A DNA stretch of 64,000 nucleotides from an uncultured virus (IMG/VR IMGVR_UViG_3300043443_000309) (Duplodnaviria; Heunggongvirae; Uroviricota; Caudoviricetes), in the IMG/VR virus record IMGVR_UViG_3300043443_000309. The stretch is one strand, 5' to 3'. Under the pieces are notes generated by a model that had not been told where the DNA came from, ran no database searches, and saw only the letters and a list, made by a program, of their open reading frames with translations. Every line of letters begins with the position of its first letter. Position 1 is the stretch's first letter. A program made the position numbers and the translations under genes. Positions 1 to 64,000 of the stretch are shown piece after piece.

Positions 1-15
1 ACGGACGAGGAATAA

Positions 16-228
16 ATGTCTCAACCTGAAATGAAAATCGAACAGGATGGAACAAAAATGTGGTATCTCAACGGCGAACTTCATCGCGAAGATGGTCCTG
101 CTGTTGAGTATCCCGACGGAACAAAGCGTTGGTATCTCAACGGAAAGTCAGTTTCTTGGAAACAAGTTTTCAAGAAAGCAAAAACAAAAGAACGAGAACT
201 AAGTATCATTATCCACGCATTGGGGTAA
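16..228 (+). CDS. HREDGPA-repeat protein (1 repeat)
   Basis: WYLNGELHREDGPAVEY motif; GAGG RBS; paralogue of 1246 and 1658. Confidence 0.8.
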   Translation: MSQPEMKIEQDGTKMWYLNGELHREDGPAVEYPDGTKRWYLNGKSVSWKQVFKKAKTKERELSIIIHALG

Positions 229-235
229 TAATCAA

Positions 236-394
236 ATGAGCAATAAAACCAAAAACCCAAAAAATCGTTCTTTCATCGCACTTTCTATGATTTTGCGAAC
301 CGGAAACCACGCAGGAAAGCATCACAACCGGGACCATGACATTATCAAGGGAAAGAGCAGAAAGCAAAAACACAAGAACAAACCTTTGGAGTGA
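236..394 (+). CDS. small basic protein (52 aa), ArfA-like C-terminus
   Basis: hand translation MSNKTKNPKNRSFIALSMILRTGNHAGKHHNRDHDIIKGKSRKQKHKNKPLE; fills the gap between neighbours. Confidence 0.6.
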   Translation: MSNKTKNPKNRSFIALSMILRTGNHAGKHHNRDHDIIKGKSRKQKHKNKPLE

Positions 395-397
395 TAG

Positions 398-580
398 ATG
401 GATCTAGAACTTTTCAGTTTTATGGAAGGCGATCTTGTCAAAATCTACTGTGACAATCGCTGTTACATCGTGACCCAAAACTACTTTTCTTGTACTGAAA
501 AATTGTTGATTTCTCTCCGTTCGATTGAAAATGGCGTGATTTCCTACACTTTCGCTGGAAATCTAGAAAAACTAGGATAA
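398..580 (+). CDS. small GDLV (KOW/SH3-like) family protein
   Basis: FMEGDLVKI...EKLG; GGAG RBS. Confidence 0.7.
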   Translation: MDLELFSFMEGDLVKIYCDNRCYIVTQNYFSCTEKLLISLRSIENGVISYTFAGNLEKLG

Positions 581-587
581 TGAAAAA

Positions 588-803
588 ATGTCTTTCAATG
601 TAGGCGATCTGCTGATCCATGTAAATCGTAGAGAAATTGCTATTGTTTGTGGCATAAATGAAGATAAAAGATTGTCTGTTCTTACGCTTGTGGATTGTGA
701 TGCTGCATCAAAGATGCTTTATCTTTGGAAGGATAGGTTCTTCGGTTGCTGGGACTTGCTTACCGATGAAAATAGTAAAGAATTCCTCTATGAATTTCCG
801 TAG
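588..803 (+). CDS. small GDL (KOW/SH3-like) family protein
   Basis: MSFNVGDLLIH. Confidence 0.7.
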   Translation: MSFNVGDLLIHVNRREIAIVCGINEDKRLSVLTLVDCDAASKMLYLWKDRFFGCWDLLTDENSKEFLYEFP

Positions 804-954
804 AGGCGATCTCGTTATCGAAAGAGTGTCAGGATCCCTCGCAATTGTAATGGAAGAAACTATCAATTGCTCGGAGAATTATGGAGTTCGTATCCGTCGA
901 ATTCAAGATGGGAAAATTCGTTATGCTATTGCTTGTAACTTGCAGGTTCTATGA
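790..954 (+). CDS. small GDLV family protein
   Basis: MNFRRGDLVIE; internal ATG of ORF 658..954. Confidence 0.65.
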   Translation: MNFRRGDLVIERVSGSLAIVMEETINCSENYGVRIRRIQDGKIRYAIACNLQVL

Positions 955-962
955 AATAAACT

Positions 963-1157
963 ATGTTATCGGAACCTGTCTTACATAACAAATTCTCCAA
1001 AGGTGACTTAGTAGAAGCAAAGTTCAGCGATACTAGAAAATACTACGGTATAGTTGTCAAAGAAGATCAAAATCACACGAACTATTATCGCGTTTGGGTT
1101 TTCGGCCACCATCGTCACTTATTCGTCGGCGCGGACCAACTAATAAAAATTGCTTAG
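963..1157 (+). CDS. small KGDLV family protein
   Basis: FSKGDLVEAK...YGIVV...KIA. Confidence 0.7.
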   Translation: MLSEPVLHNKFSKGDLVEAKFSDTRKYYGIVVKEDQNHTNYYRVWVFGHHRHLFVGADQLIKIA

Positions 1158-1191
1158 GTTCTAACTGAAAGTCAAAAAAACGTCAAGGCCG

Positions 1192-1220
1192 TTGACGACG
1201 GCCCCCGTCTGCGCTATAAT
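1192..1220 (+). promoter_or_regulatory. early sigma70-type promoter
   Basis: TTGACG-N17-TATAAT. Confidence 0.85.
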
Positions 1221-1245
1221 GTCCTCTCAACGAACGAGGAACAAA

Positions 1246-1608
1246 ATGTCTAAACAACCGAAAATGCAGGTTCTTCCTGACGGCTCAAAAGAGTGGCTTT
1301 TGAACGGCAAACGTCATCGAACCGATGGTCCCGCTGTTGAGCGGCCTAACGGGACAAAAGAGTGGTGGTTGAACGGCAACCTTCATCGAATTGACGGCCC
1401 TGCTATCGACCGAGCTAACGGCACGAAAGAGTGGTGGTTGAACGGCAACCTTCATCGAATTGACGGCCCTGCTATTGAATGGGCTGACGGCTCGAAAATG
1501 TGGTTTTTGAATGGAAATGAAGTTTCTTGGAGAGAAGTTTTCAAGAAGGCAAGCAACCTTGAAATCGAGTTGCGAATTCTGTCCTTCCTTGACAACCTCT
1601 TGACTTGA
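1246..1608 (+). CDS. HREDGPA-repeat protein (3 x 23-aa repeats)
   Basis: repeated WxLNGxxHRxDGPA; GAGGA RBS before ATG 1246. Confidence 0.85.
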   Translation: MSKQPKMQVLPDGSKEWLLNGKRHRTDGPAVERPNGTKEWWLNGNLHRIDGPAIDRANGTKEWWLNGNLHRIDGPAIEWADGSKMWFLNGNEVSWREVFKKASNLEIELRILSFLDNLLT

Positions 1609-1633
1609 CGACGGCTCCTACTTCGGCTATAAT
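1605..1633 (+). promoter_or_regulatory. early sigma70-type promoter
   Basis: TTGACG-N17-TATAAT; -35 overlaps upstream stop codon. Confidence 0.85.
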
Positions 1634-1657
1634 GCTTTCTCAACGGACGAGGAATAA

Positions 1658-2017
1658 ATGTCGCAGCCCGAAATGAAAATCGATGCCAATGGAACAAAGC
1701 GTTGGTATCTCGGCAACAAACTCCATCGCGAAGATGGTCCTGCTCTTGAGCGTGTCGATGGAGAAAAGTGTTGGTTTCTCAATGATAAAAGGCATCGCGA
1801 AGATGGGCCTGCTATTGAGTGTCCCGATGGAGAAAAGCGTTGGTATCTCAACGATAAACTTCACCGTGAAGATGGTCCTGCTATTGAGTATTCAAATGGG
1901 GCAAAGGAATGGTTTCTCAACGGAAATCGAGTTTCTTGGAAAGAAGTTTTCAAGAAGGCAAAGACACAAGAAATCGAGTTGCGAATTCTGTCCTTCGTTG
2001 ACAACCTCTTGACTTGA
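1658..2017 (+). CDS. HREDGPA-repeat protein (3 repeats)
   Basis: HREDGPA x3; C-terminus nearly identical to the 1246 protein. Confidence 0.85.
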   Translation: MSQPEMKIDANGTKRWYLGNKLHREDGPALERVDGEKCWFLNDKRHREDGPAIECPDGEKRWYLNDKLHREDGPAIEYSNGAKEWFLNGNRVSWKEVFKKAKTQEIELRILSFVDNLLT

Positions 2018-2042
2018 CGACGGCTCCTGCCTCGGCTATGAT
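2014..2042 (+). promoter_or_regulatory. early sigma70-type promoter
   Basis: TTGACG-N17-TATGAT. Confidence 0.8.
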
Positions 2043-2068
2043 GTTCTCTCGACGGACGAATAAAGAAA

Positions 2069-2284
2069 ATGAACGCAGGAAACATGTACAAACTTTCAGA
2101 CAGCAACATTTATGTTTCTCGCGACTATCGAGGAAAAATCGTCATTATCAAAGACGAGCCAAGGATGGACAAAGCACCATCCGGCATTCACAGGACCACT
2201 TTTCTTTGCATGGTAGTAGAAAACTCAGAAATTCTCCCATTCTTTGACTATCAACTATCAGACGCTAGGTTGCTGGCGGAATAA
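2069..2284 (+). CDS. hypothetical protein
   Basis: ORF directly downstream of promoter, abuts next gene. Confidence 0.6.
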   Translation: MNAGNMYKLSDSNIYVSRDYRGKIVIIKDEPRMDKAPSGIHRTTFLCMVVENSEILPFFDYQLSDARLLAE

Positions 2285-2530
2285 ATGAAAGCAGGCGATC
2301 TGATCAAATTCAATTATTTCTCTCGCGATGCTTGGGGTATCGTGTTAGAAAGGTGGTTACAACCCGGTGGATACTACTACGGGATAAAGTGCAAAATCGT
2401 TAGCATTTCAGAAAAAACAGTAGAAAATAGGTATTACGATGGGCTTTTTCCTGTGGTTGGAGTAGGAGAAACCATCACCGGCAGCGAAGAATGGTTCAGA
2501 AACAACATGAAAAAAGGAGAAATCCTATGA
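2285..2530 (+). CDS. small GDL family protein
   Basis: MKAGDLIKF...WGIVL. Confidence 0.7.
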   Translation: MKAGDLIKFNYFSRDAWGIVLERWLQPGGYYYGIKCKIVSISEKTVENRYYDGLFPVVGVGETITGSEEWFRNNMKKGEIL

Positions 2531-2766
2531 CTTTCGATCAATTCATCGATCTATACGAAAAAGAAGCAGAGAACCCTGATAACTCTCATTTTAGGCGTGG
2601 ACAGTTGCTTTTCAACATGCTTCGGGAAATTCGTCCCGACCTCTCCGAAAAGATCCGTTCAACCTCATTAGACCCTTTCTACCTCGACGCTTCGATGCCC
2701 CTCTGTTGGCTCTTCGTTCAGAAGAACTGGGATAATGCAGGTTCGCTCTCAATTTCTACGCCTTGA
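2527..2766 (+). CDS. hypothetical phage protein
   Basis: ATGA overlap, AGGAG RBS; RRGQLLFNML...DPFY. Confidence 0.7.
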   Translation: MTFDQFIDLYEKEAENPDNSHFRRGQLLFNMLREIRPDLSEKIRSTSLDPFYLDASMPLCWLFVQKNWDNAGSLSISTP

Positions 2767-2788
2767 CAACCGCTTGACAAGAAATTCG

Positions 2789-2817
2789 TTGACCACCCGC
2801 CCCGTCTGCGATAAGAT
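2789..2817 (+). promoter_or_regulatory. early sigma70-type promoter
   Basis: TTGACC-N17-TAAGAT; extra TTGACA at 2763 and 2774. Confidence 0.75.
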
Positions 2818-2872
2818 GTGAATGTTGGCGGGTGGTCCGCCACCGAACGAAAACCCAAGAGTTGAGGAAAAA

Positions 2873-3670
2873 ATGGCTTACAAGCGTACCATCTACTGCA
2901 GTGCATGTGGAACGGCTGGCCATAATCGGGCTTCCTGCCCGACTAATAAGGCGCGCATCGAAGAGTTGCGGGCGGCATACGGTTCTGACCATTGGCAGGT
3001 TTCTAACTACGATGCCAAGCGTAAGCGTTCTACCACGCGAACCTGCTCGTACTGCCGTGGAACCGATCATAATCGTGCTGCTTGCTCGGTTATGAAGAAC
3101 CACAAGGAAAGTGTGCGTCCTCACGTCGTCGCTTATCGTCAAGCTTTCATCGACAATCTTTGCAAGATTGGTCGTGTTCCCGGCACTATCGCGATGCATC
3201 GGCAACATAGCGATTTGTCCAACATGTACCTGATTGAAAGGATTGACTACGATCAAGCTAGTCCTTGGACGGGCAAGACTTCCAATCCCTTGGTTGTTCG
3301 CGGCCTTTCGCTCGTCGGTCCCGGCAAGGAAAACGTCGAAGATAGGTATGTTCGCTGGTACCTCAACGAAACCGGCAGTCTTCCTGCGTTCATCCACTCT
3401 TTCTTCGATTATGACGGCCACCCGCGGGTTGATACCGTCGTTGCTGCCGGTTGTACCGAGGCTTTCCGCAAGAGTATCCCAAAGAGCTGGATGGACGCCG
3501 AAAACATCGATTTTCTCTTTGAGAATAACCGGAATTCTATCGGTCGAACCGAAGGCTCTTTTAGCGGCTACCTCCGTGAAGCGGAGAATGGGCGTGTGGC
3601 CGAGACAATTGCTAGCATGAACAGCAGGACCGACCGCTTCATCGAAGAAACGGGCTTCTCCCTGAACTAA
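2873..3670 (+). CDS. double CCHC zinc-knuckle protein
   Basis: CSACGTAGHNRASC and CSYCRGTDHNRAAC (CX2CX4HX4C); GAGG RBS. Confidence 0.8.
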   Translation: MAYKRTIYCSACGTAGHNRASCPTNKARIEELRAAYGSDHWQVSNYDAKRKRSTTRTCSYCRGTDHNRAACSVMKNHKESVRPHVVAYRQAFIDNLCKIGRVPGTIAMHRQHSDLSNMYLIERIDYDQASPWTGKTSNPLVVRGLSLVGPGKENVEDRYVRWYLNETGSLPAFIHSFFDYDGHPRVDTVVAAGCTEAFRKSIPKSWMDAENIDFLFENNRNSIGRTEGSFSGYLREAENGRVAETIASMNSRTDRFIEETGFSLN

Positions 3671-3730
3671 GCCAACAACAGGCGTTCGTTGGGGCTTTCC
3701 GGCCTTGACGAACGCTTGACAACCGTTGAC

Positions 3731-3759
3731 TTGACCTAGCCTCCCGGTTCGGCTATAAT
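3731..3759 (+). promoter_or_regulatory. early sigma70-type promoter
   Basis: TTGACC-N17-TATAAT; extra TTGAC at 3705, 3716, 3726. Confidence 0.85.
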
Positions 3760-3804
3760 GACGGGGTTCGATGGAAGAACGGTCACCAACAACGGAGATA
3801 ACGA

Positions 3805-4665
3805 ATGAACGCCAAGAATTCTAAGATCAAGAAAGAAACCCCGACGACCCGCCGTTTTCAAGCTCTCTTCGATAGTGGGCTTCTCACCGACCGGGACCGC
3901 TCGTTCCTTGATAGTCTGCTTTCTTCCTACCTTCGCTCCGGCTCGCTGACGGCTGGTCGTCGCGCTGCCTTGGAGAAGGTTGAGGCGCGCATCCAAAACG
4001 TGGCTTTGAACGGTATCTCTGTCGATACCTCCGCTCAAACGCGGCTTGAAACCTTGATTTCGGGCGGTGGCCTTGATGCTTGGGCTACTTCCTTCGTAAA
4101 TTCGCTGCTCTCGCAAGTCAAGGTTGGCCGGGATCTTTCGCCCGCGCAAACCGCCCATCTTGAAAAGCTGGAGAATAAGCTCGCTGCTAGCCGTGCTTTC
4201 GCTACGTCGTTTACTGACGAGCAGCGAGCTTTGTTTTCGCGAGCGGTTGAATACTACCGTTCTACCTCGTACTTTACCAACGTGGTCCAAAGCTTCGATG
4301 CTGACGCTGCTTTCGTCCCCTCGCCGCATGTCTTCGAAAAGATGACGAACAACCCCTACTTCAAGAAGGTTGTCGAAGCGCAGGATGCGGCTCCCAAGTT
4401 CGCAGAAGGCGATTTGGTCGGTCTTTCCAAGGCTATCACCAACACCTACGCCGGTCGCGGTGTGCTGGCGCAAATTGCGAATAGCCTTGGTTCTACCTAC
4501 ATTCAAGTCGAGGGCACCCGTAAGGTTCTTCGCGGCATGGTCCTCGTCAATGACGGTTTGACCGTCGTTTCTAGCGTCCGTGGTGCCAAGCGGTACAAGG
4601 TTCTGCTTTTCGGAGCTTCTTCCCCGGTTTTGATCGAGGAGCGGTTTCTTGTGCGAGGAAAGTGA
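3805..4665 (+). CDS. hypothetical protein with duplicated helical motif and C-terminal GDLV domain
   Basis: F(L/V)xSLLS...L(T/S)...LEK twice; PKFAEGDLV; GGAG RBS. Confidence 0.8.
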   Translation: MNAKNSKIKKETPTTRRFQALFDSGLLTDRDRSFLDSLLSSYLRSGSLTAGRRAALEKVEARIQNVALNGISVDTSAQTRLETLISGGGLDAWATSFVNSLLSQVKVGRDLSPAQTAHLEKLENKLAASRAFATSFTDEQRALFSRAVEYYRSTSYFTNVVQSFDADAAFVPSPHVFEKMTNNPYFKKVVEAQDAAPKFAEGDLVGLSKAITNTYAGRGVLAQIANSLGSTYIQVEGTRKVLRGMVLVNDGLTVVSSVRGAKRYKVLLFGASSPVLIEERFLVRGK

Positions 4666-4701
4666 GTTTTCGGTCTTGACGAACGGTTGACAAGAAAACG
4701 A

Positions 4702-4730
4702 TTGACCGTGCGCCCCGACTGCGATAGAAT
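4702..4730 (+). promoter_or_regulatory. early sigma70-type promoter
   Basis: TTGACC-N17-TAGAAT; extra TTGAC at 4676 and 4687. Confidence 0.8.
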
Positions 4731-4788
4731 GTAAAGGTCGGCGGGTGATGGGCACCAACCGACGCCAAACAAAAGTGGAGTTAGAAAC

Positions 4789-5088
4789 ATGGAAACGAAT
4801 AACTGGTCGATTGTGAAGGATGATACTCGGTTTCTCGTCGTCGGCTTTGACGACTGCGACTTTGAGCTTGATACCTACGAGGAAGCGGCGTCTTTCCTTG
4901 ATTTCTTGAACGAGGACGAAACTCGCAAGGAAGATCCTGAGTTTTACTTCGATGAGTGGCACTACCTCACGTTTGAGGCTTCGCCCGTCGCTTTTGACGA
5001 GCAGGAAATGAACGAGGTTGAAAGCGAGGAAGATTTCGATGCCGAACTTGGCGAGGTTCTTTCGTACCTCGGCGTTGTGACGGCATAA
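4789..5088 (+). CDS. highly acidic small protein (candidate DNA mimic)
   Basis: 31 D/E vs 4 K/R in 99 aa; GGAG RBS. Confidence 0.75.
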   Translation: METNNWSIVKDDTRFLVVGFDDCDFELDTYEEAASFLDFLNEDETRKEDPEFYFDEWHYLTFEASPVAFDEQEMNEVESEEDFDAELGEVLSYLGVVTA

Positions 5089-5098
5089 GAGAGGAACA

Positions 5099-5176
5099 AT
5101 GCTGATTTTCGCCAAACTGTACTTTGCCCTTTGCCTTTTCGACGTAGCCCTTCGACTGTGGAGAATTCCGGGATGA
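5099..5176 (+). CDS. small hydrophobic peptide (25 aa)
   Basis: GAGGAACAATG; MLIFAKLYFALCLFDVALRLWRIPG; ATGA-coupled to next gene. Confidence 0.55.
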   Translation: MLIFAKLYFALCLFDVALRLWRIPG

Positions 5177-5520
5177 ACGGACACTTTCAGCCAATTGACT
5201 ATCGAACCTTGGAAACCCGCGTGACCGTGGCGTGTCCTCCGGTTATGCATCCTCCAACCGGCGATTTTCGCCTTGCTGGTTGCTTCGGTACTTGGCTGCT
5301 TATTCCTGCCGAGACAACTCGCGAGGAACTAAGCCGTTACTTCAACGTCGTTCTCCCCCAACCTCCCATTCCTAGCGTTCAACCTAAGACTTTGACTGTC
5401 GCTGGTTCGCGAGGAGCAACCTACACTGTTCGCCTCCGTGAAAACGGGCAAACATCCTGCACTTGTCCCGGCTTCGGCTTCCGTCGCACTTGCAAGCATC
5501 TAGCTGCCCTTTCGGCATAA
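5173..5520 (+). CDS. SWIM zinc-finger protein
   Basis: YTVRL...SCTCPGFGFRRTCKH (CxC...CxH). Confidence 0.8.
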   Translation: MNGHFQPIDYRTLETRVTVACPPVMHPPTGDFRLAGCFGTWLLIPAETTREELSRYFNVVLPQPPIPSVQPKTLTVAGSRGATYTVRLRENGQTSCTCPGFGFRRTCKHLAALSA

Positions 5521-5530
5521 AGAAGGAACA

Positions 5531-5602
5531 ATGAACACTTTTCTCTTCTTCGCGATTTACGGCTTTCTCTCGTTCATGGTCGTCATCAGCATCCCCGAGT
5601 AA
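5531..5602 (+). CDS. small hydrophobic peptide (23 aa)
   Basis: AAGGAACAATG; MNTFLFFAIYGFLSFMVVISIPE. Confidence 0.55.
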   Translation: MNTFLFFAIYGFLSFMVVISIPE

Positions 5603-5658
5603 GGAACAATCTCCACTATCGGCAAATCGAACAATTTCGAACAAGTGGAGCCAACCGC

Positions 5659-5687
5659 TTGACCACGCGGCCCGACTGCGATAAGAT
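5659..5687 (+). promoter_or_regulatory. early sigma70-type promoter
   Basis: TTGACC-N17-TAAGAT; spacer similar to the 2789 and 4702 promoters. Confidence 0.75.
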
Positions 5688-5725
5688 GATGGGGTCGCTG
5701 AGAGAAGCGGCTAACGGGGTAAACG

Positions 5726-5806
5726 ATGGACAACGCTCTCATGTACGGTTCAATCACGCTTTCTGCCCTTTCGGGCTTTCTTAGCCTCTATTGGGACTTG
5801 ATCTAA
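5726..5806 (+). CDS. small hydrophobic peptide (26 aa)
   Basis: MDNALMYGSITLSALSGFLSLYWDLI; first ORF after promoter. Confidence 0.45.
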   Translation: MDNALMYGSITLSALSGFLSLYWDLI

Positions 5807-5829
5807 CAACCACAGGTTCAGCCTCAACA

Positions 5830-5928
5830 ATGACTAAGTTCTACCTTCAAGGTGCTTTTCTCGGACTGCTCGCTCTTTTGGCGGTTCGTCCTTTCTTTCT
5901 CGCGATTGCCGCCATTGTCGGCATCTGA
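5830..5928 (+). CDS. small hydrophobic peptide (32 aa)
   Basis: AACAATG; MTKFYLQGAFLGLLALLAVRPFFLAIAAIVGI. Confidence 0.5.
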   Translation: MTKFYLQGAFLGLLALLAVRPFFLAIAAIVGI

Positions 5929-5956
5929 CCTAACAACCAAGAACTCAGGAGGAACA

Positions 5957-6043
5957 ATGGACCTTTTCGACTTCGCACTCTACGCTTCGCTCGGCTTCGT
6001 CGAGGCTTCTACCTTCTTCCTCGCTTATCTCCAAGTCTGCTGA
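5957..6043 (+). CDS. small hydrophobic peptide (28 aa)
   Basis: AGGAGGAACAATG; MDLFDFALYASLGFVEASTFFLAYLQVC. Confidence 0.6.
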   Translation: MDLFDFALYASLGFVEASTFFLAYLQVC

Positions 6044-6098
6044 TAAGCGAGCATCAACCAAGGCCGCGAGCCTTGACAACCGCTTGACAAGAAAACGG

Positions 6099-6127
6099 TT
6101 GACCGGCTCTCCCGGCTAGGCTATAAT
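6099..6127 (+). promoter_or_regulatory. early sigma70-type promoter
   Basis: TTGACC-N17-TATAAT; extra TTGACA at 6073 and 6084. Confidence 0.85.
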
Positions 6128-6194
6128 GAAAGGGTCAAGGGGCGATGGTCGCCCCGCGACAACACGACAACAAGACAACAACGTAGGTTCTAAC

Positions 6195-7352
6195 ATGGCT
6201 ATCGATTTCCGTACTGCTTCCACCGCTATCCCCTTCGTCGCGGCTGCTCGTCACCCTATCCTGTGGCGCGGTCGTCACGGCATCGGAAAGTCCGAGGCAA
6301 TCAAGGCTTTCGCCGCTTCCATCAACCTTCCGATTGTGGAGCGCCGCGCTGCACAGTTGCAGGAAGGCGACCTTTTGGGGCTTCCTTCGCCCACTATGGT
6401 CGAGGTGAACGGCGTTGAGGCTGCTCAATTGCGTCCCTTTGCGTGGCTTATCAAGGCTTGCACGCAGCCCGTGGTCCTCTTTCTTGACGAGGTTGACCGT
6501 GGCACTTCCGAGGTTCGTCAAGGCATCTTCCAACTTTGCGATTCTCGCACGGTCGGTGATTGGCGGCTTCATCCCGACACTATCATCGTTGCGGCGGTGA
6601 ACGGTGGCGAGAATGCCGCTGAGTACCAAGTTGGCGAGATGGATCCTGCCGAACTTGACCGTTACACGACTTTCGACGTTGCTCCGTCTGTTGACGATTG
6701 GCTCTCGTGGGCTGGTGGTGAAGACCGTGGTTCTATCACCGCTTCCGTGTTCGCGACCGTTCGCGCTGCCGTCGATGCTCGCGATAACACGGGTTCGCCC
6801 ATCGATTCGCTGATTGTTGACTTCATTCGTCAAAATCCGTCTCACCTCGAACATCGCGATACCTTTGAGCCTAACAAGGTTTACCCGTCGCGTCGGTCGT
6901 GGAAGCGTCTCTCCGATACGCTGGTTGCAGGCGGGCTTTTGAACGATGCCAAGGCTAACCGTGGTGTCATCGCTTGCCTCACGACTGCTTACGTCGGGCT
7001 GGAGGCTTCCGTCGCATTCACGGACTTCGCGGCCAACTATGAGCGTCAGGTGACTGCCGAGGACATTATCAATCACGGAAAGCTGGCCCGCGTGGCCGAC
7101 TTTGGCGTGGTTGAGCATACCGCGCTCGTCGGCAAGATGAAGGATTCGGGCATCTTCAAGGATACCATGAACCCGACGCAACTCAAGAACTTGGCTAACT
7201 ACCTCACTCTTCTGCCGTCCGAGGTTGCGATGGTACTGTTCGCTCACATCCCGGTCGCTGGTGATGCCGGTCCTTCCAACATCGGCGCTTTGTACAAGAC
7301 CAAGGCCGACAATGGCAAGACCGTCCGCGAGTTCATCGTGAGCTTGATGTGA
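6195..7352 (+). CDS. MoxR-like AAA+ ATPase
   Basis: Walker A GRHGIGKS, Walker B LFLDEVDR, MDPAELDR, PSRRSW. Confidence 0.85.
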   Translation: MAIDFRTASTAIPFVAAARHPILWRGRHGIGKSEAIKAFAASINLPIVERRAAQLQEGDLLGLPSPTMVEVNGVEAAQLRPFAWLIKACTQPVVLFLDEVDRGTSEVRQGIFQLCDSRTVGDWRLHPDTIIVAAVNGGENAAEYQVGEMDPAELDRYTTFDVAPSVDDWLSWAGGEDRGSITASVFATVRAAVDARDNTGSPIDSLIVDFIRQNPSHLEHRDTFEPNKVYPSRRSWKRLSDTLVAGGLLNDAKANRGVIACLTTAYVGLEASVAFTDFAANYERQVTAEDIINHGKLARVADFGVVEHTALVGKMKDSGIFKDTMNPTQLKNLANYLTLLPSEVAMVLFAHIPVAGDAGPSNIGALYKTKADNGKTVREFIVSLM

Positions 7353-7374
7353 TTGCATAGGTTCGCCGCCCACT

Positions 7375-7404
7375 AAGCCCAGCCTCACCGCTGGGCTTTC
7401 TTTT
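7375..7404 (+). terminator. intrinsic terminator
   Basis: AAGCCCAGC-CTCACC-GCTGGGCTT followed by TCTTTT. Confidence 0.8.
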
Positions 7405-7478
7405 ATCCGCATTCAACCTCGATAGTACCAAGCTGGCTTCGACAGCAAACAAGCAAGGAACTTCCTGCTTCATTCCGA

Positions 7479-7862
7479 TACCAACGGAGACCCATCTAGC
7501 AGCCGTTCTGAGAGAGCCTGACGGCGGGAGCCACCGACACCCACCCGAACGGCTCCGACGCCTTGTAGAGCCGTTCTAGCGCGTTCTGAGACTATCGCTG
7601 GTCCTTGCCGCCGTCCTGCCGTTCAACCCCACGACGACGGCCAGCTACCGTGGCTCCGAGCCAAAGAACAGGTCCAACCTTGCATAGAACCAAGCCGACT
7701 AACTATGCAAAATGCAAAGGAAGAAAGGGGCCTTTAGAGTACCAACGGAGGCCCATCTAGCAGCCGTTTTACGGAGCCGTTGAGGCTACCCTAGCCGATG
7801 GTCACCCGAACCGCTGGCGCGTCTTATAACGGCCCCTGAGAGCGTTCTAGGGCGTCTGCTGG
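7479..7862. repeat. two degenerate ~123-bp direct repeats (7479-7601, 7740-7862)
   Basis: shared TACCAACGGAG.CCCATCTAGCAGCCGTT, CACCCGAAC, GCGTTCT; offset 261 bp. Confidence 0.8.
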
Positions 7863-8038
7863 CGGTTGCTCGACGTAGCCCGAACGCTCCCGAGCCGCGA
7901 CCACCAGCCAAGGTAGAAGCATCGTTTTCAGCCTTGACAACTTGTTGACGACCGCTCAGCAGACGCAAATGACCAAAGAGCAGGAAGGAAGAGAACAATT
8001 GAAGATTGAGCGTCAACCGATTTTCTTTCTCCAACCGC

Positions 8039-8067
8039 TTGACTTCACCATCGGGATCTGTTATAAT
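8039..8067 (+). promoter_or_regulatory. early sigma70-type promoter
   Basis: TTGACT-N17-TATAAT with TG extension. Confidence 0.85.
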
Positions 8068-8127
8068 GAAGGGGCAAGGATGGTCCTTGCTTCTTGCAGC
8101 CAACCTCCAAACGACAGGAACAACCTA

Positions 8128-9435
8128 ATGACTGCAACTATGCCCGCTCCTACGCCCGCTTTCGACATGAACCTCCACATTCACAAGCTCATGCTGAAAG
8201 AGCCTTTCTTCGCCGCTATTTCGCGACGCATGAATAAGGTCGCTACTACCGCCATTCCTACCGCTGGTGTCCGTGTCAATCCCGATACGCTGGCGCTGGA
8301 AATGGCTTACAACCCTGCTTTCTTCGACCGGCTCGTTCGTGAGCATGTCGATTTCGTCGGTTCTATGAAGGCAAAGGACCGCAAGGCTTACATTTCCTCG
8401 CACCCCGGCGAGAATGGCGAGGTTGATCCTTACGTTTGGGTTCGCGGCGTTCTCCTGCATGAGCTTTATCACATTGTTTTCGGGCACATCACTGAGCGTT
8501 TGCCCGATGGTGGTATGACCAAGAAGTGGAACCACGCTACCGACCTTGCAATCAATACCAACCTTCAAGGCCAGCTTCCGTCGTACTGCCTCATGCCGGG
8601 CGTCGGTGAGTACGCTAACATGCCTCATAACATGAGTGCTGAGCACTACTACCGTAACATCGTTGATCCCGACGAAAAGCAGCAGAACCAAGGCAATGGT
8701 CAAGGCAATGGCCAGCAGGGACAAGGCGAAAAGCAGGATGGTGATGGACAATTCGATGACCATTCCGGTTGGGATGAGTTGCCGGACGACCTAAAGGATG
8801 CTGCAAAGGAGGCAATGCGTCAGATCACGGAGCAAGCCGTGAATGAGGCAAACAGCAATAGCCAAGGTTGGGGCAGTGTTTCTGCCGCAATGAAGGGCAA
8901 GATCCTCGATTCCATCCGTCGTAAGGTGAATTGGCGGGCGCATCTGCGTTATTTCGTCAAGACCTCTCAGAAGGCTGACCGTCGAACCTCCATTTTCCGC
9001 ATCAACAAGCGGTTTCAGTACATTCATCCGGGCAAGAAGGCTAATCGTACTGCCAAGATTGCAATCTCCATCGACCAGTCGGGTTCGGTTTCTGACGAGC
9101 TTCTTACTGCGTTTTTCTCGCAGCTTGATTCGCTGGCTCAGATTGCAGAATTCACGGTTGTTCCTTTCGATACTGGCGTTGACGACACCAAGGTTTACAC
9201 TTGGAAGAAGGGCCAACATCGCAAGGTTGAGCGTGTTCTGCATGGTGGAACCGACTTCAATGCTCCCACCAAGTGGGTGAATGAACGGAATTTCGATGGT
9301 CACATCATCCTTACTGACCTTGAAGCACCTTTGCCTATTCCGAGCAAGTGCCAGCGCATGTGGATGACTGATAAGTCCTGTTTCGGACGGCGTTCTTTCA
9401 ACACCAACGAGCGTATCATCGTTATCGAGGACTGA
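8128..9435 (+). CDS. metallopeptidase-like + vWA domain protein (DUF2201 type)
   Basis: LLHELYH (HExxH), NHATDLAIN, Q/G linker, MIDAS IDQSGS, GGTDF, ILTD. Confidence 0.85.
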   Translation: MTATMPAPTPAFDMNLHIHKLMLKEPFFAAISRRMNKVATTAIPTAGVRVNPDTLALEMAYNPAFFDRLVREHVDFVGSMKAKDRKAYISSHPGENGEVDPYVWVRGVLLHELYHIVFGHITERLPDGGMTKKWNHATDLAINTNLQGQLPSYCLMPGVGEYANMPHNMSAEHYYRNIVDPDEKQQNQGNGQGNGQQGQGEKQDGDGQFDDHSGWDELPDDLKDAAKEAMRQITEQAVNEANSNSQGWGSVSAAMKGKILDSIRRKVNWRAHLRYFVKTSQKADRRTSIFRINKRFQYIHPGKKANRTAKIAISIDQSGSVSDELLTAFFSQLDSLAQIAEFTVVPFDTGVDDTKVYTWKKGQHRKVERVLHGGTDFNAPTKWVNERNFDGHIILTDLEAPLPIPSKCQRMWMTDKSCFGRRSFNTNERIIVIED

Positions 9436-9438
9436 GAA

Positions 9439-9690
9439 ATGACGGTCGAAACAGGACAAGTCAAGGCAGTGATGCACAGGTACGAAAAGGGAGAAATGCT
9501 ATGGCTTACGAACAAGTCTGCTGCTTTCTCCCGAACGCTAGGTACAAGCACGTTTATCGTGGTGAAGCATGGCACCGAACAATCTCCTTGGCAAGTGCTT
9601 GTGAGGCTGGTTGGAGGCCCACTTGACGGAACCGAGAAGGTTATTCACGATTCGCTAGTTACTCCCTATTCACCAAATGAACGAGGATGA
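9439..9690 (+). CDS. KGDL-array protein 1 (divergent)
   Basis: RYEKGEML. Confidence 0.65.
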   Translation: MTVETGQVKAVMHRYEKGEMLWLTNKSAAFSRTLGTSTFIVVKHGTEQSPWQVLVRLVGGPLDGTEKVIHDSLVTPYSPNERG

Positions 9691-9694
9691 ACGA

Positions 9695-9898
9695 ATGAAA
9701 TTCCAGAAAGGTGATTTGTTGACAAGCCGTTCGTATCCAACCTCAATTTGGATTGTCGCGGACATAACTCGTCATTCAGTATTCGAAATCAACACGGGTT
9801 ATGTGCTTCGTTCCATTGTTTATGATGGTACGCCAAAGCAACGTGAGATGAGGCTTTCAATCTCCACAGTCGAAGGCACATACACAAAGATAGGATAG
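9695..9898 (+). CDS. KGDL-array protein 2
   Basis: MKFQKGDLL...KIG. Confidence 0.8.
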   Translation: MKFQKGDLLTSRSYPTSIWIVADITRHSVFEINTGYVLRSIVYDGTPKQREMRLSISTVEGTYTKIG

Positions 9899-9902
9899 AC
9901 CA

Positions 9903-10112
9903 ATGAAATTCAAGAAAGGTGATTTGTTTACTGGTTGTAACGAGCTAAATCCCGGCGTTATTCTGCTTGCTCTAGAGGATACTAGAGCAGAAGGTTATAA
10001 TCAGACTTTATGCCAGTTCTTGAACCATCCCGAAGAACCCGAAAAGGTAGGAACTACGACATTTTTCGCTGATTGGGCACTCGCAAATTATTATCGCAAG
10101 GTTGTAGCATGA
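9903..10112 (+). CDS. KGDL-array protein 3
   Basis: MKFKKGDLF. Confidence 0.8.
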   Translation: MKFKKGDLFTGCNELNPGVILLALEDTRAEGYNQTLCQFLNHPEEPEKVGTTTFFADWALANYYRKVVA

Positions 10113-13785: not shown

Positions 13786-13806
13786 TTCTTAACCTTGTCC
13801 AATCCG

Positions 13807-50771: not shown

Positions 50772-51146
50772 ATGGCGATAGGTTATTCGGCTAAACTACC
50801 ACTACAATACAGTTTTACTGATGGCCTTTATGGTCTGAACAAAAACATTGCCTCTGTTGTCAGACAAAACATCAAAATGGTAGTTTTTACATCTCCCGGT
50901 GAACGCTGTATGGACATAAAGTTTGGTGTCGGTATAAGGACGTATCTGTTCGAACCAACCACCGAGACTACCAGAAGTAATCTAAGAGATCGGATAATCC
51001 AACAACTAAACACATACCTTCCATTTGTCCAGATAGTAAGTCTTAGTGTTGTAACAGATGACCTAGAACCGAATAAACTCTATGTTAACATGGAATACAG
51101 ATTTCCGAATAGTGAGCTTCAGGTACTGAATCTTGAAGTTAGATAA
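50772..51146 (+). CDS. baseplate wedge subunit, gp25-like
   Basis: QNIK...TSPGERCM..FGVG...LFE...YLPFV. Confidence 0.88.
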   Translation: MAIGYSAKLPLQYSFTDGLYGLNKNIASVVRQNIKMVVFTSPGERCMDIKFGVGIRTYLFEPTTETTRSNLRDRIIQQLNTYLPFVQIVSLSVVTDDLEPNKLYVNMEYRFPNSELQVLNLEVR

Positions 51147-51188: not shown

Positions 51189-53003
51189 ATGACTAACGAC
51201 AATTCTAAAAAACCACTCATAAGGTATAGCTCTAGAGATTTCGAAAGCATAAAAACCGATCTTATTGAGTTCGCGAAAAGGTATTACCCAGATTCATACA
51301 GAGACTTTAACGAAGCAAGCTTTGGTTCGCTCATGCTTGATAGCGTTGCTTATGTCGGAGACATAATCTCGTTCTATCTGGATTATCAAGCAAATGAATC
51401 CTTCTTAAGCACCGCTGTAGAATACAACAATGTTAGAAAACTAGCAGAGCAAAATGGGTATAAATTCCGAGGACCATCAACATCTAGTGGACTAGCGCAG
51501 TTCTTCGTACTAGTACCGGCTTTAGCTGCTTCCCCTGTTAGCGGCCCCGATCCGGCTTACATACCAGTTTTAAAGAAAAACTCTACTTTTGCTTCGTCAA
51601 ATAATGCAGTATTTACATTATTGGATGATGTACGATTCGATACAACAGATACCGAGATAGTACCAGCTAGAGTTAATACCACTACAGGACAGCCAACCTA
51701 TTATGCCTTAAAAAAGAGTGGTGTCGTTATCTCTGGCAGAATGACTACAGAAACGGTTGACATTGGTGCTGCTGAGAAATTTAAGAGAGCGCCATTACTT
51801 GGAAGAAACATCAATGAAATAATGACTGTCTTTGACTCACAAGGACATGAGTATTATGAAGTTGATTACTTGACACAGAATGTTGTATACAAAGAGATTG
51901 AAAATAAAGGATCCGATAGGGAACAAGTTCCTTCTATTCTTAGACCTTTTAGCGTTCCTCGTAGATTTACTTTTGAAACAACACAAGAAGGAACTTCGTA
52001 TTTACAGTTCGGCTCGGGCGCTGAAAGCGAACTAACATCGCCAGCCTACGCTGAACCAAATACAATTCTATTACAGAGGTATGGTAGAAGTTACGAGACA
52101 GAACAAGACTTTGATCCAAATAAACTTCTAAATTCTGATAAACTTGGAATTGCACCCTCAAGCACTACTCTAGAAGTCACCTATCGTTTTAATGACAGTA
52201 CAACCGTAAACGTACCGGCAACCAGATTAAACAGAATACTAACTCCAATTTTTGAGTTTACTTCCGAATTTACTTTGAATTCTGATGCCGTTACTGCTGT
52301 TAAAACCAGCCTAGAAGTTAGCAACGAAGAACCGATTGTTGGACAATCCTCTCTTCAAAGCTCTGATGAAATCAGAAAACGTTCTATGTCGTACTTTGCA
52401 TCTCAAAATCGTGCTGTTACACAACAGGATGTTGAAGCTGTTTGCTATGCAATGCCAGCAAAGTTCGGTTCTATTGTCCGCGCAGGAGCCTATAAAGATT
52501 CAAATTCATTCAAACGAAACATAAATTTGTATGTATTGACTGAAGATTTTGCTGGTAAATTGATTGCACCATCTGGTTTGATGAAAGACAACTTGAAAAA
52601 TTGGTTAAATAGATACAAGATGATTCACGATACCGTTGACATTCTAGATGGACTTATCGTGAATTATGCTGTTGAATTTACCATTCTTGTTGATAGACAC
52701 ATGGATAGAGAGGTGGTTTTGGCAGAGGCTAAGAGAACTTTAGCCAATCATCTAAGTCGCCCCGGTTTCTTCGGACAGAATGTTTCTATCTCCGAAATGT
52801 ATTCTGTTCTGAACAAACAGGTAAGAGGTGTTATTGATGCCAAAGGTATACGTTTGATCCCACGATTAGGCGGAAATTACTCTTCAAACGGATTCGATTT
52901 TGTTACGGCTTTGTCGGTTGATGGAACGTACATGGTCGTACCAAAAAACGTTTGTATGGAACTAAAGTATTCTGATGTCGATGTTATAGGAGCTACTGCA
53001 TAA
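51189..53003 (+). CDS. baseplate wedge subunit, gp6-like
   Basis: DFESIKTDL, YVGDIISFYLD.QANESFL.TA, QNRAVT..D. Confidence 0.88.
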   Translation: MTNDNSKKPLIRYSSRDFESIKTDLIEFAKRYYPDSYRDFNEASFGSLMLDSVAYVGDIISFYLDYQANESFLSTAVEYNNVRKLAEQNGYKFRGPSTSSGLAQFFVLVPALAASPVSGPDPAYIPVLKKNSTFASSNNAVFTLLDDVRFDTTDTEIVPARVNTTTGQPTYYALKKSGVVISGRMTTETVDIGAAEKFKRAPLLGRNINEIMTVFDSQGHEYYEVDYLTQNVVYKEIENKGSDREQVPSILRPFSVPRRFTFETTQEGTSYLQFGSGAESELTSPAYAEPNTILLQRYGRSYETEQDFDPNKLLNSDKLGIAPSSTTLEVTYRFNDSTTVNVPATRLNRILTPIFEFTSEFTLNSDAVTAVKTSLEVSNEEPIVGQSSLQSSDEIRKRSMSYFASQNRAVTQQDVEAVCYAMPAKFGSIVRAGAYKDSNSFKRNINLYVLTEDFAGKLIAPSGLMKDNLKNWLNRYKMIHDTVDILDGLIVNYAVEFTILVDRHMDREVVLAEAKRTLANHLSRPGFFGQNVSISEMYSVLNKQVRGVIDAKGIRLIPRLGGNYSSNGFDFVTALSVDGTYMVVPKNVCMELKYSDVDVIGATA

Positions 53004-63400: not shown

Positions 63401-63480
63401 AGACACCACCCTCTGCACAAACGGTAGGTCAATCTACACAGCCAAGCATTCAGTTAGTTCCAAAGACTAGGACCAGATAA
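54466..63480 (+). CDS. giant baseplate/tail protein with LamG-like domains (3004 aa)
   Basis: TVEFW, WRHYAF, LDEFRFW, YYKFNEG; IYKSKGT (gp7-like wedge motif). Confidence 0.8.
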   Translation: MSIKDLFGLEKKYTVPVSDKISSDVYLYAESYDNIIAKYNAVERFVPLVDFSDPKNFVKYGSAENYYSSSITNIINEFPYDGSKKELNEYLSRCTYLDLYMLGKRHPRYNGFAILSSNNYTFSGAQVGGYGNPTSKEYIYFYGGPHTASQGMIGAPLADTFGDANKFQTDVYATASVAADGRTGTRTSNLLVNPSYGTTVEFWLNKSGFATASNAKEVVLDLWNSNASSSSGYGRLLLGITGSADGLSTFYYELSSGSVSANGTISISGFTTASLADGTWRHYAFSFQNTGSDLEVKAYINGNREYLATLSGKSMQTIDGAMVATIGALKTSPSGNTFHGLDMVGYGKLSASLDEFRFWKSVKNEKEINFQYKYTVGGGTNTDISNTELGVYYKFNEGITGDSGTDAIVLDYSGRVTNGIWYGYPGSSARNTGSAMVIAGATETEYADPVVRSNHPSVVSLYSELIASGSEYDLSNNASLYYSMPSWILEEDRPEDGSQGGELFNLTQIMSYQLDELYLGAQNLNKLKHKEYLSSSYDRPLPFAEYQLANQGFVTPNIFENAKLYEKIFDVDYTNAFEQNLEEVKNNIYQNVYNNLVFIYKSKGTDKSFRNLIRNYGIGEDVVNVSVYPNNTRYKYDNRYDFTAIGKKFANFHDPDNFNASVYHVTGTNSFISGSTINQDLKEFGFTTEVEVIFPKKPTTSEAGFFNTSFVTSSIAGFHLANTASTSDFTFQNPDTTLRLYSIRVSEESPNVYFLLTGSINGTTNVSLTSSVFYSVYDNKKWNFAVILSPDKALHYEGITGSVSSSYTLAFYGVNKELDIVLDSFYITSSLGNTTGSLLASSPKRYYLGARGNNISGSVIDRTDLRIGGLRHWILPLDTSSIDNHAQNPLNYGVENVARNAFLNQNVVSGTYVPEIATLALHWDFSNVTGSDAGGEYEVFDISSGSFNSTLFGKISAVTDRIYNAKGYNFPTSSSEVITKEFISFAETGIPDEINSYDLIKTPDTDDEVFTKEILPINYYFSFEKSPFRNVSKDMVQMFSSLKDFNNLYHQPVQRYREEHKELRQLRELYFSKVSNRIDIDKFFNYYRWIDHSLSEMLRQLVPITADAGDRVTNVIESHVLERNHYKYNYPILEYKTRNYEGHVFGISEMLYPWNRGNHPISNVENENCYWWNRRAERNGAVITSGNSTVDEQREIIRRTVTTHTSGSGALLAKPDGTAYYGSDYAVRRFTKLYNFDMSLDSKFYQVVEQVLFVGLNAPKGFVTKVWKSIVAKLASETLVLDNFEEQEDCKDISTISLLEPAKIPLELTKVRMKFRATFGSTQIGAYAVLPFTFMSASAGVPNTGYQAQLTSGFGTSKRFDIIGHHSDVYDMDFEIPVQGPFTEKYVGGHSHRHVDVNRYDAAKTGTNNVDDANNRPEAYDLNLSSNTITITNRSITKPRTTVARDGMAKRPLNVANIAHSTGSLSTVLGNFNSALEVVSTTGRSENDLSFNDTPFSGSATGSLAVSGTSEYTKLARTTNKNVIVQRFSAPGDPATMGDNLGGPGLDAAHSEYSAYNALPFRNLSVRIPLRTFLSTRSEIAGLTSGSTPVAADYSGTGSFHGVYRNKLGKLGQTDAAYFSSSTSDNYFVQYQIPRNDLHYSWITGAAVTYNSFTVTTAGDVPSGFVAPDGEYSSSAGVNPAITFVTASSIVSYATSSNGANVFGFVDGVTSGYSVVANSQLRTGFNGMTTNIVDPFDLDTMTLGLSPTASVSGYINPSLVSSSINTNNAYALNSIIATRGGKFAKSSWSQVRHTDKKYIRKLKSTNTISHTVDDVDLVTTVIGTGIGSNIIKKLPRTYTFVEPSVELDNRPFSMLFGVPNSTANIIANLSVNNEVTHFTNEQLNSLLNIRNINRDKVNQIKAFITNNTKLSLNSILLADTVYPKAVYQTLNIVRERTNFDNNFWRDARSDRNAKGYAAKKAMVTNGALTAISQSAWALDASTNFETVASLTFGVTNSQGADYKEGILQNNYVMVHTGTTASKAALRLAPLYSRKHFLGSAYSFTPSISVTNATTGALGSLGTFPVAYPLGNATIFGGNTKWQTGEKAGYYNSDGVFVSQSGSPFYDTYASFAEELRPHNQAYSILPEFRISNFMEYYVKSRQGNFLADNTGSFDIFGMCALTASATVASSSSDTDFYQVYATSDLFENLEETLNELDGTLRPEAIKLKFKAIKKFVPYNGFYPSERTVDLAFQFSRSYGAFIETRGSDTGSLTAGADNIKLRPMYAPLFAPGILYNSIKSGIAVDYPIYTASFTTIQMQNASLSGGPIASESVISTGSLTEYYVLGTGSKGTSGFDYRVPFEAIYDPKSYLKGVRFLDMEPHPSASLNISASWDGNGDDLYELMSNNFLAEVVDFYLDKGEMSSLVSDPQSSFSGFKPNTFYNMRVRLRRSTNIPRRFTDGYPTPHNSYAQTDLKESLTMYSRPSAFGPPMGARKWIDSSSYTSSARPDSLFAYDLGFTPPYYDGESWADVVFQATSETHTLDDIFGSSQVVCWRVDSGSDWVRGSLYDNYPYGEYANNFAMQLTSSINLFAKVPVKSVEFDANGNPTAIKEDKSSNDHIWVIQPKFETPVLNFTDSISSSSLSLPTVASESVAVGMWHQFGVVPDSPDKGIFLEVSPIEDAWINNRLKASMPTAIKNVYGATSSMASLLDIVNFRKRSTRVGDIGKSKTVYEAVVAVPFVESQGKRKFFELNRDVAVQARRMAVNPSYVPEASLVPGQSLIDLYKKMNKYVFPPTFDYYNYEENDLNYAPISMYVFEFSHTFDQNDLVRMWQNLPPEIGTTTEFAEASITHALSAYEILDAFRATGGNTNANLKWLVFKVKQRAKTNFEDKQLGKRSNADPRFTSYRTQVGNRSNAIQEKYSYNWPYDNFSLVEFGKMDFEVIAKPIVAPGGAIGQQVGISGTGINTNISTTTTGVPTAPAVNPNLSPTSAQVSSIVQTPPSAQTVGQSTQPSIQLVPKTRTR

Positions 63481-63512
63481 TAAGTCTGGTCCCTACTTAG
63501 TATAGGTGTAAA

Positions 63513-64000
63513 ATGGCTCAGTTTTTTGACGACAAGGAAGAGGTAATAGACATTGAATTGACCGAATGGGGTAAATACCTTTACTCTATCGGGAAGTTCA
63601 AGCCAACTTATTATGCCTTTTCTGATGATGAGGTATTGTACGATAGCGCGTATGCTGGGGTATCTTCAGAAGAACAAAAAGAAATTGTTGATAGGATAAC
63701 GGATAGCACTCCGTACCTAAAACCTCATGTACGTTTTAAGGAAGCAAAGACCTATTACCAAGAATACGACTCAGCCTCTGAACCAGATGCGACCGTATTT
63801 CAAAATCCGCTTGATTCTGCTGCGCGAGTTGATACTTTACTAGAAAGCAAGATTGAACTGATAAAACAGAAAGCTGGTAGGTACTCACAATCAACAAAAG
63901 AATTAGAAAGACTTATACTCTCTAAAGTGGGGACTGTTAGGACTACCACACAGGACTACCCAGCCTTCGACGTGACCTTTCTACAAAGTAGGATTTCTTC
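63513..64000 (+). CDS. baseplate-associated protein (partial)
   Basis: MAQFFDDKEEVIDIELTEWGK...YAFSDDEVLYD; CCTACTTAG at 63492; runs off the window. Confidence 0.7.
   Translation, partial: MAQFFDDKEEVIDIELTEWGKYLYSIGKFKPTYYAFSDDEVLYDSAYAGVSSEEQKEIVDRITDSTPYLKPHVRFKEAKTYYQEYDSASEPDATVFQNPLDSAARVDTLLESKIELIKQKAGRYSQSTKELERLILSKVGTVRTTTQDYPAFDVTFLQSRIS

Follow-up and report, generated by a model that had tools for sequence, protein, structure and literature searches.

We found that the tetranucleotide ATAT is almost absent from a 64,000-nt stretch of DNA from an uncultured virus (IMG/VR record IMGVR_UViG_3300043443_000309; Caudoviricetes), here called the window, and selection by a host restriction-type nuclease that recognizes ATAT is the probable explanation. 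The word occurs 12 times in the window (at 13693, 13778, 13983, 13989, 14033, 14076, 14090, 14096, 14172, 15014, 20389 and 20391), compared to 429 copies expected from base composition, 254 from a first-order Markov model and 269 from a maximal-order Markov model. Under the last model the ratio of observed to expected copies (O/E) is 0.04 (z = -21.2), which puts ATAT at the bottom of all 256 tetramers, and the base that follows ATA is A in 446 cases, C in 332, G in 213 and T in 12. An earlier sequence-only reading of this DNA had reported about a dozen ATAT, nine of them in 13693-14175, where several hundred were to be expected, and its count and coordinates were exact. It had also described TATA, AATT, TTAA and GATC as common. 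This is correct for TATA (195 observed, 230 expected), AATT (359) and GATC (255), all of which are near expectation, but TTAA is strongly depleted (116 observed vs. 271 expected, z = -12.8). ATAA is not avoided either (446 observed, 264 expected), and TTAT is normal or in excess.

The depletion does not depend on coding. When synonymous codons were shuffled within each of 40 plus-strand open reading frames (ORFs; 51,552 nt), 300 shuffles gave 259.7 ± 12.0 copies of ATAT (minimum 231) vs. the 12 observed. By codon phase, 1, 6 and 5 copies were observed while 45.7, 117.8 and 96.1 were expected; since all three phases are depleted, neither codon usage nor amino-acid content explains the result. 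The ORFs were called by a crude longest-ORF selection, which bears only on these codon-based tests, and in the 3,042 nt outside the ORF calls ATAT is found 0 times with 15.2 expected. The codon-pair steering that had been noticed by eye (GAC-ATT, AAC-ATC and TAC-ATT) was confirmed by counting. Before codons of the form ATN, Asp is encoded 3 times by GAT and 72 times by GAC, GAT making up 69% of the Asp codons elsewhere, and the same comparison gave 1/88 for Asn, 2/38 for Tyr and 0/19 for His. Similarly, Tyr following NNA is encoded by TAT 5 times and by TAC 125 times, and Ile preceding TNN is encoded by ATA once vs. 192 times by ATT or ATC, although ATA accounts for 28% of the Ile codons elsewhere. 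The target is the whole 4-mer, as ATAT occurs in all 16 NATATN contexts in relatives and the 12 copies in the window are not explained by any one context. Loss of several 6-bp sites (AATATT, GATATC and CATATG) was ruled out as the source of the pattern because ATAT with non-palindromic flanks has been lost too.

These nulls bear on an alternative in which no sequence-specific enzyme is involved and the lack of ATAT follows from mutation bias, from DNA structure, from the usage of codons or dinucleotides, or from avoidance of promoter-like words. ATAT is indeed mildly under-represented in general, with a mean O/E of 0.85 and a variance of 0.05 in 200 genomes (PMC3077040, values as given in its Table 1), but by these tabulated values the window lies about 3.6 standard deviations below the mean. 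Composition and codon usage are already accounted for in the Markov and codon-shuffle nulls, the related words TATA, ATAA and TTAT are normal or in excess, relatives whose shared proteins are up to 93-94% identical have about as many ATAT as expected, and ATAT has been removed by substitutions of many kinds. We therefore regard a by-product as highly improbable; the Markov and codon-null check that the earlier reading had proposed yielded neither an O/E near 1 nor a depletion attributable to codon usage.

Avoidance of ATAT is restricted to the lineage of the window, and its relatives avoid other words. A search with the baseplate protein gave 35 IMG/VR loci and 68 metagenome loci, and five close contigs (G001 to G005) were taken whole; G004, which matches part of G002 at 99.999% identity, was not treated as an independent contig. 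The contigs were compared by their lowest tetramers under the maximal-order Markov model, given here as observed/expected. Relatives with a baseplate protein 71-74% identical to that of the window have ATAT at expectation, but AATT or TTAA is purged. G001 (128 kb) has AATT 57/721 and ATAT near expectation, G002 (147 kb) has AATT 46/756 and ATAT 704/871, and G003 (60 kb) has TTAA 183/371, TCGA 56/158 and CATG 38/139, compared to ATAT 12/269 and TTAA 116/271 in the window. In G005 (48 kb) nothing is strongly depleted, the lowest tetramer being CATG (72/121). A tree built on the baseplate protein places the window in one group with two short contigs from metagenomes, L063 and L112 (support 100/99). 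L063 (2.3 kb, from another metagenome, baseplate protein 88% identical) has ATAT 0/12, TTAA 1/15 and AATT 2/11, and is a second, independent case of ATAT avoidance. Even within this subclade of three (76-79% DNA identity), the avoided A/T-only palindromes differ. In distant loci (31-50% identity) ATAT is not depleted, and a few of them avoid other palindromes (TGCA, GGCC). Three features expected of restriction-site avoidance were found here: the word is a short palindrome, it is depleted beyond composition, Markov and codon nulls including in non-coding DNA, and the depletion is lineage-specific. Moreover, the three words avoided in the clade (ATAT, AATT and TTAA) are all palindromes, while only 16 of the 256 tetramers are palindromic, so that the probability by chance is about (1/16)^3, which points to a dimeric DNA enzyme.

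The ATAT sites of the relatives are lost in the window place by place. In an orthologous codon alignment of the window with G002 (48,786 nt, 69% nucleotide identity), 2 of the 258 ATAT of G002 are kept in the window, and at 121 of these places the encoded amino acids are identical. Reciprocally, 2 of the 280 AATT of the window are kept in G002. As controls, ATAA was kept at 105 of 280 places and TATA at 42 of 170. At 189 places ATAT is present in at least two of four relatives, and the window has ATAT at none of them; control words common to at least two of the four were kept in the window at 102 of 211 places for ATAA, 54 of 110 for GATC and 39 of 116 for TATA. Where G002 has ATAT, the window has ACAT (59), ATAC (24), GTAT (20), TTAT (18), ATTT (11), ATCT (10), ATGT (10), CTAT (9) and others, and such diverse replacements look like selection rather than one mutational process. 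These alignments show that ATAT was lost in the window's own lineage. The gene at 38784-39077 is an example: its 97-aa product is 100% identical in G001, G002 and G004 while the DNA is only 85-89% identical, and the differences include GAT-ATT in G002 vs. GAC-ATC in the window and ATT-AAG in G002 vs. ATA-AAG in the window. This small protein opens the tail/baseplate block, and its identity indicates extreme purifying selection. At the population level, none of the 40 differences listed (of 1,298) creates ATAT, and with only about 0.8 expected this comparison has no power; about 2-10 ATAT-creating transitions per run would be expected if the variants were random.

The surviving sites are concentrated in one segment. 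Ten of the 12 ATAT lie within 13211-15309 (plus strand), which is 3.3% of the window (binomial P = 9e-14), and beyond 13.2-15.3 kb there are only two, at a single locus. Since 13211-15309 is 87.5-93% identical at the nucleotide level to 26.8-30.9 kb of G002, while the backbone is 70-77% identical, this segment appears to be recently imported DNA. Its own word usage, with ATAT (10/14.6) and TTAA (8/9.7) not depleted and AATT (4/15.1) depleted, resembles that of the AATT-avoiding relatives, and two of the three CCWGG of the window are located there. Within the segment, a small plus-strand ORF at 13468-13785, which is 94% identical in amino acids to an ORF of G002, carries two ATAT (13693 and 13778). 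Another small plus-strand ORF, at 13882-14253, carries seven vs. 6.5 expected and thus shows no avoidance; no homologue of it was found in the five relative contigs or in IMG/VR, and by its N-terminus it is a paralogue of its neighbours. The single ATAT at 15014-15017 is in ORF 14857-15291, in a block 90% identical to G002, and its 24-nt context is identical in G002. The remaining locus is ATATAT at 20389-20394, two overlapping sites in ORF 18401-21142 that reads TCA-TAT-ATG where G002 has TCC-TAC-ATG; one C-to-T change (TAC to TAT) would create both sites. The most plausible reading of the surviving ATAT is that this DNA was acquired, or mutated, too recently for the sites to have been purged. 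The residual AATT of the relatives are also clustered, with 33 of 46 in G002 at 24.3-30.0 kb, the syntenic cassette zone, and 33 of 57 in G001 within two inserts specific to that contig, one at 125.8-126.5 kb (18 copies) and one at 105.6-113.2 kb (15 copies).

The region 13507-15660 has the look of a hypervariable early region that holds a family of paralogous cassettes. The small ORFs starting from 13507, 13882 and 14399 have a common N-terminus, M-(R/K)-(L/I)-(T/S)-(V/I)-(N/S)-Q-L-R-(R/Q)-I-I-K-E-E, and then diverge; a fourth similar opening at about 15316 was read in the DNA only. No family match was found for the small cassette ORFs of 13507-15660. Each cassette ORF is preceded by ACTATTTAT, which is present in seven copies, all on the plus strand (13446, 13850, 14373, 15293, 16466, 24032 and 26321), where 0.62 is expected and none of 100 shuffles reached seven. 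In six of the seven 60-nt stretches inspected, one for each copy, an ATG in an apparent frame is found about 15-26 nt after ACTATTTAT, which makes it a candidate phage promoter. Identical 22-nt GC-rich hairpins with a T run are located after the first two cassette ORFs (13810-13831 and 14333-14354) and look like terminators, so each cassette ORF is apparently its own transcription unit. Contigs 90-99% alike were found in four runs (X3, X4, X6 and X16) of four studies with subsurface, aquatic, aquatic and freshwater metagenome labels, and the phage is therefore present in several independent data sets. In this region the X4 contig joins 13455 to 13882 with 23 other letters between, replacing 13456-13881, and the X6 and X16 contigs depart from the window sequence at 13320 and 13454. 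Contig depth is low over 13.67-14.3 kb in X3, X6 and X16, which was not taken as absence of the segment.

The loss of palindromes extends well beyond ATAT. Among six-base palindromes, 22 of 64 are absent from the window, compared to 40 of 4,025 non-palindromic hexamers, and the median O/E is 0.26 for palindromic hexamers vs. 0.95 for the others; all 64 palindromes have an order-1 expectation of at least 4 in the window. About 21 palindromes are absent or nearly absent in the window and in all five relative contigs (ACGCGT, AGCGCT, AGGCCT, CACGTG, CAGCTG, CCCGGG, CGATCG, CGGCCG, CGTACG, CTCGAG, CTGCAG, GACGTC, GAGCTC, GCATGC, GCCGGC, GGGCCC, GTCGAC, GTGCAC, TACGTA, TGCGCA and TCCGGA), all of which we take to be sites of classical Type II enzymes. 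Other palindromes, such as AAGCTT, TCTAGA and TTATAA, reach or exceed their expected counts. Certain losses are specific to a lineage: CCATGG is absent from G001 and G002 and at 9/9 in the window, while CCTAGG is 0/8 in the window and 15/19 in G002. CCWGG occurs 3 times in the window vs. 57 expected. The hexamer set avoided in the clade is mostly kept in distant relatives (e.g., 110/82 in locus L006). Because many six-base palindromes and CCWGG have been lost, the clade appears to be under broad restriction pressure, with ATAT as one item of the list. Among the cultured distant relatives, a 42-kb piece of Microcystis phage Mel-JY01 (143491-185344 of the record) has GATC 0/83 and CTAG 0/36, and a piece of Flavobacterium phage immuto avoids nothing (ATAT 419/437); the avoided words of these two phages gave no host lead. 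Many six-base palindromes are also missing from the Mel-JY01 piece, and the set differs from that of the window's clade.

The depletion of TTAA is uneven across blocks of the window (chi-square 45.5, 8 df, P = 3e-7). It is strongest in the backbone block 24030-33912 (4/44), and TTAA is also missing from 1-9435 (0/14). TTAA is 17/22 in the window-specific sugar genes at 33913-37301, where ATAT is 0/18, and 47/60 in the divergent tail-fibre-like genes at 41791-50734 (plus strand), where ATAT is 0/46. One possibility is that the donor of these two blocks avoided ATAT and not TTAA, the other that selection against ATAT is stronger or older than selection against TTAA.

The agent could also be encoded by the phage, for example as an ATAT nuclease that degrades host DNA while the phage's own genome is kept free of the site without modification. 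T4 endonucleases II and IV destroy host DNA, and the modified cytosine of T4 spares its own DNA. A nuclease of this kind would likewise press sequence-specifically on the phage's own genome; however, phages such as T4 protect themselves by base modification and not by site removal, and no such nuclease was found in the window. The candidate proposed by the sequence-only reading, a Cas4/RecB-like PD-(D/E)XK nuclease at 30646-31416 (plus strand), is the only recognizable nuclease of the window. Its counterparts in G001 and G002 are 93% identical to it and that in G003 is 85% identical; as these three relatives do not avoid ATAT, it is not the determinant of avoidance. PADLOC on 69 window ORFs, 25 + 18 + 34 Pfam queries on window ORFs, and scans of 84 of the 123 G002 ORFs of at least 90 aa and of 33 ORFs specific to G001, G003 or G005 detected no family of DNA methyltransferases or restriction nucleases, although restriction nucleases often escape family scans of this kind. 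The window-specific genes are sugar-pathway genes and small ORFs of about 50-125 aa. Some two thirds of the genome is located beyond the window, and many ORFs of the window and of G002 have no family, which leaves room for a nuclease that is hard to recognize. Nevertheless, phage-borne nucleases cannot plausibly cover all the words avoided in the clade, which are about 21 hexamers, CCWGG and, in the single contig L063, as many as three 4-mers, and we consider a phage-encoded agent improbable.

Under the favoured explanation, the host bacteria would carry a double-strand DNA nuclease recognizing ATAT, most simply as part of a Type II restriction-modification system. Since ATAT contains no C or G, any base methylation that protects it could only be N6-methyladenine. 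On phage DNA that enters unmethylated, each ATAT would be a chance of cutting, and a mutation that removes a site would raise the success of infection. Over a long time about 260 sites would have been replaced, synonymously at about half of the places and with all four positions of the word hit, and DNA recently recombined from relatives under a different restriction regime would still carry ATAT. The sequence-only reading had offered an ATAT-specific host defence enzyme as one of its two inferences. This idea fits all of the comparative evidence (the switching of words, the palindromes, the loss of shared sites and the imported survivors), which makes it probable but does not prove it.

A further alternative, to which we give a small but real chance, is that a non-classical host defence recognizes ATAT: a DpnI-like modification-dependent nuclease that acts on ATAT methylated in a previous host, a phosphorothioate-type system or a sequence-specific DNA-binding silencer. 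The evidence above speaks of selection against double-stranded ATAT and not of how the word is sensed, and no classical ATAT enzyme is on record. On the other hand, every other word avoided in the clade is a classical Type II palindrome, which favours a like agent for ATAT. AT-binding silencers prefer TpA-rich runs in general, so the silencer variant is at odds with the lack of avoidance of TATA and ATAA.

Several observations weigh against a host nuclease specific for ATAT. No ATAT-specific enzyme or methylated ATAT motif was found in the full-text literature, REBASE itself not being queried, and the only ATAT matches were sub-variants of the Helicobacter RTAY-N5-RTAY motif. The subclade member L112 (2.2 kb) is only partly depleted of ATAT (6/14), with AATT at 0/10 and TTAA at 1/10. 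With 12 sites remaining, protection would be incomplete. Strand tests cannot separate targeting of DNA from targeting of RNA, as ATAT is its own reverse complement, and a phage gene outside the 64-kb window may be the agent.

Restriction-site avoidance in phages is a textbook phenomenon, and its classical literature reportedly comprises Sharp 1986, Gelfand & Koonin 1997 and Rocha et al. 2001. We know of no enzyme that cuts ATAT. The present case is like phage restriction-site avoidance in general in that a palindrome is purged below Markov and codon nulls, in all codon phases and in non-coding DNA, and in that the word varies by lineage; the Mel-JY01 piece, with its lack of GATC and CTAG, is a cultured example. 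It is unusual in its breadth, since a single lineage avoids two 4-mers as well as CCWGG and about 21 hexamers, and in that its word, ATAT, was in 2013 one of two tetranucleotide palindromes, ATAT and TATA, without a recorded enzyme (PMC3724700, in the part of the article available to us). With no ATAT enzyme on record, avoidance here predicts an enzyme rather than reflecting a known one.

MseI is specific for TTAA. A marine metagenome methylome reported methylation of AATT and TTAA in uncultured aquatic bacteria, together with MluCI as an AATT-specific enzyme, and ATAT is not mentioned in the main text of this study (PMC8919816). The sites of MluCI and MseI resemble ATAT in being A/T-only palindromes of 4 bp, and lineages that are sisters of the window avoid them in an equally all-or-nothing manner; the presumed ATAT enzyme is compared here with the MluCI and MseI families by its site. 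Protospacer-adjacent motifs (PAMs), another class of short words, are as a rule non-palindromic, and the reported PAM depletions are modest. Depletion of PAMs in phages of CRISPR-bearing hosts (PMC4246573, in the portion of the paper drawn on here) is similar in that a short motif is depleted through host immunity, but every word avoided here is palindromic and the depletion is about 25-fold.

The window is part of an uncultured freshwater T4-like myovirus, as seen from its gp25-like (50748-51146) and gp6-like (51189-53003) baseplate wedge proteins and from the T4-type genes in G002, which encodes a T4-type portal, large terminase, prohead protease, tail sheath, RecA and DnaB-like helicase. 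The 64 kb would belong to a genome of perhaps 180 kb, a size extrapolated from G002 (147 kb, estimated 81% complete). Nearly all large ORFs are on the plus strand. Other genes encode an Hsp20 (27584-28003) and a PIN-PhoH protein (28964-30346), and a cluster of glycosyltransferase and sugar-nucleotide genes at 31.4-37.3 kb is followed by two giant proteins of 2,173 and 3,004 aa. No tRNA genes were found in the window. The nearest cultured baseplate proteins are those of Microcystis phage Mel-JY01 (31% identity) and Flavobacterium phage immuto (29%), and megablast/tblastn found no nucleotide match in cultured phages for 30000-38000, nor any for ORF 39080-40732. An exact 38-mer taken from the end of the window had no match in IMG/VR. 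In the search for a host, a scan of genome_contigs with the baseplate protein gave no match, and one with the sugar epimerase yielded nothing beyond a hit of 60% identity on a 2.9-kb MAG contig and two hits of 26%, which are uninformative. For the Far-T4 phages of Roux et al. 2015, hosts are described as unknown in the available text of PMC4360716, the main text of which does not contain the word "restriction", and as Bacteroidetes by in silico prediction in that of PMC7198788.

Several other features of the window were observed. The region 2001-10000 has a G+C content of 50-57%, compared to about 40% in the remaining window, with no ATAT and no TTAA, and encodes an AAA+ (MoxR/CobS-like) ATPase (6126-7352) and a DUF2201 metallopeptidase/VWA protein (7942-9435). 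It is not a recent import, since it is common to G002 at 77% nucleotide identity. A repeated coding module of about 130-300 nt at 1-170 and 1343-2018 matches a dozen or more places of G002 at 69-86% identity (0.2-0.6, 8.1-9.0 and 13.0-13.7 kb among them), which suggests a multi-copy small-gene family at the left end. In the sugar cluster, a DegT/DnrJ-type aminotransferase ORF (35722-36345) has 207 aa, compared to 360 positions in the Pfam model and 387 aa in the G003 homologue, and overlaps the next gene; it may be truncated or frameshifted. ORF 39080-40732 (550 aa), within the conserved tail/baseplate block, has no family and no relatives found in IMG/VR, is common to the relative contigs only in its first ~170-210 residues (30-50% identity), and is probably a swapped host-recognition or fibre module.

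Using avoidance in reverse, a phage genome here reveals a recognition specificity, ATAT, that is ascribed to no enzyme in the literature found. We lean, by a modest margin of belief, towards the view that the hosts of this clade carry a set of restriction enzymes for A/T-only 4-bp palindromes, including the first ATAT endonuclease, with AATT, TTAA and ATAT specificities distributed by strain and possibly as variants of one family. If so, the phage genomes would record which specificities each lineage has faced, and the ATAT enzyme would fill one of the two palindromes listed without an enzyme in 2013 (PMC3724700, same part). An ATAT cutter, if real, would be a new frequent-cutting tool for AT-rich DNA, and its existence would mean that part of the restriction repertoire of uncultured freshwater bacteria has escaped methylome and enzyme surveys. 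The clade is a clean natural experiment, with reciprocal purging of ATAT, AATT and TTAA, cassettes that keep the pattern of their donor, and blocks that differ in TTAA, and therefore avoidance patterns may be used to date and source recombination and to match phages to hosts by their methylated motifs.

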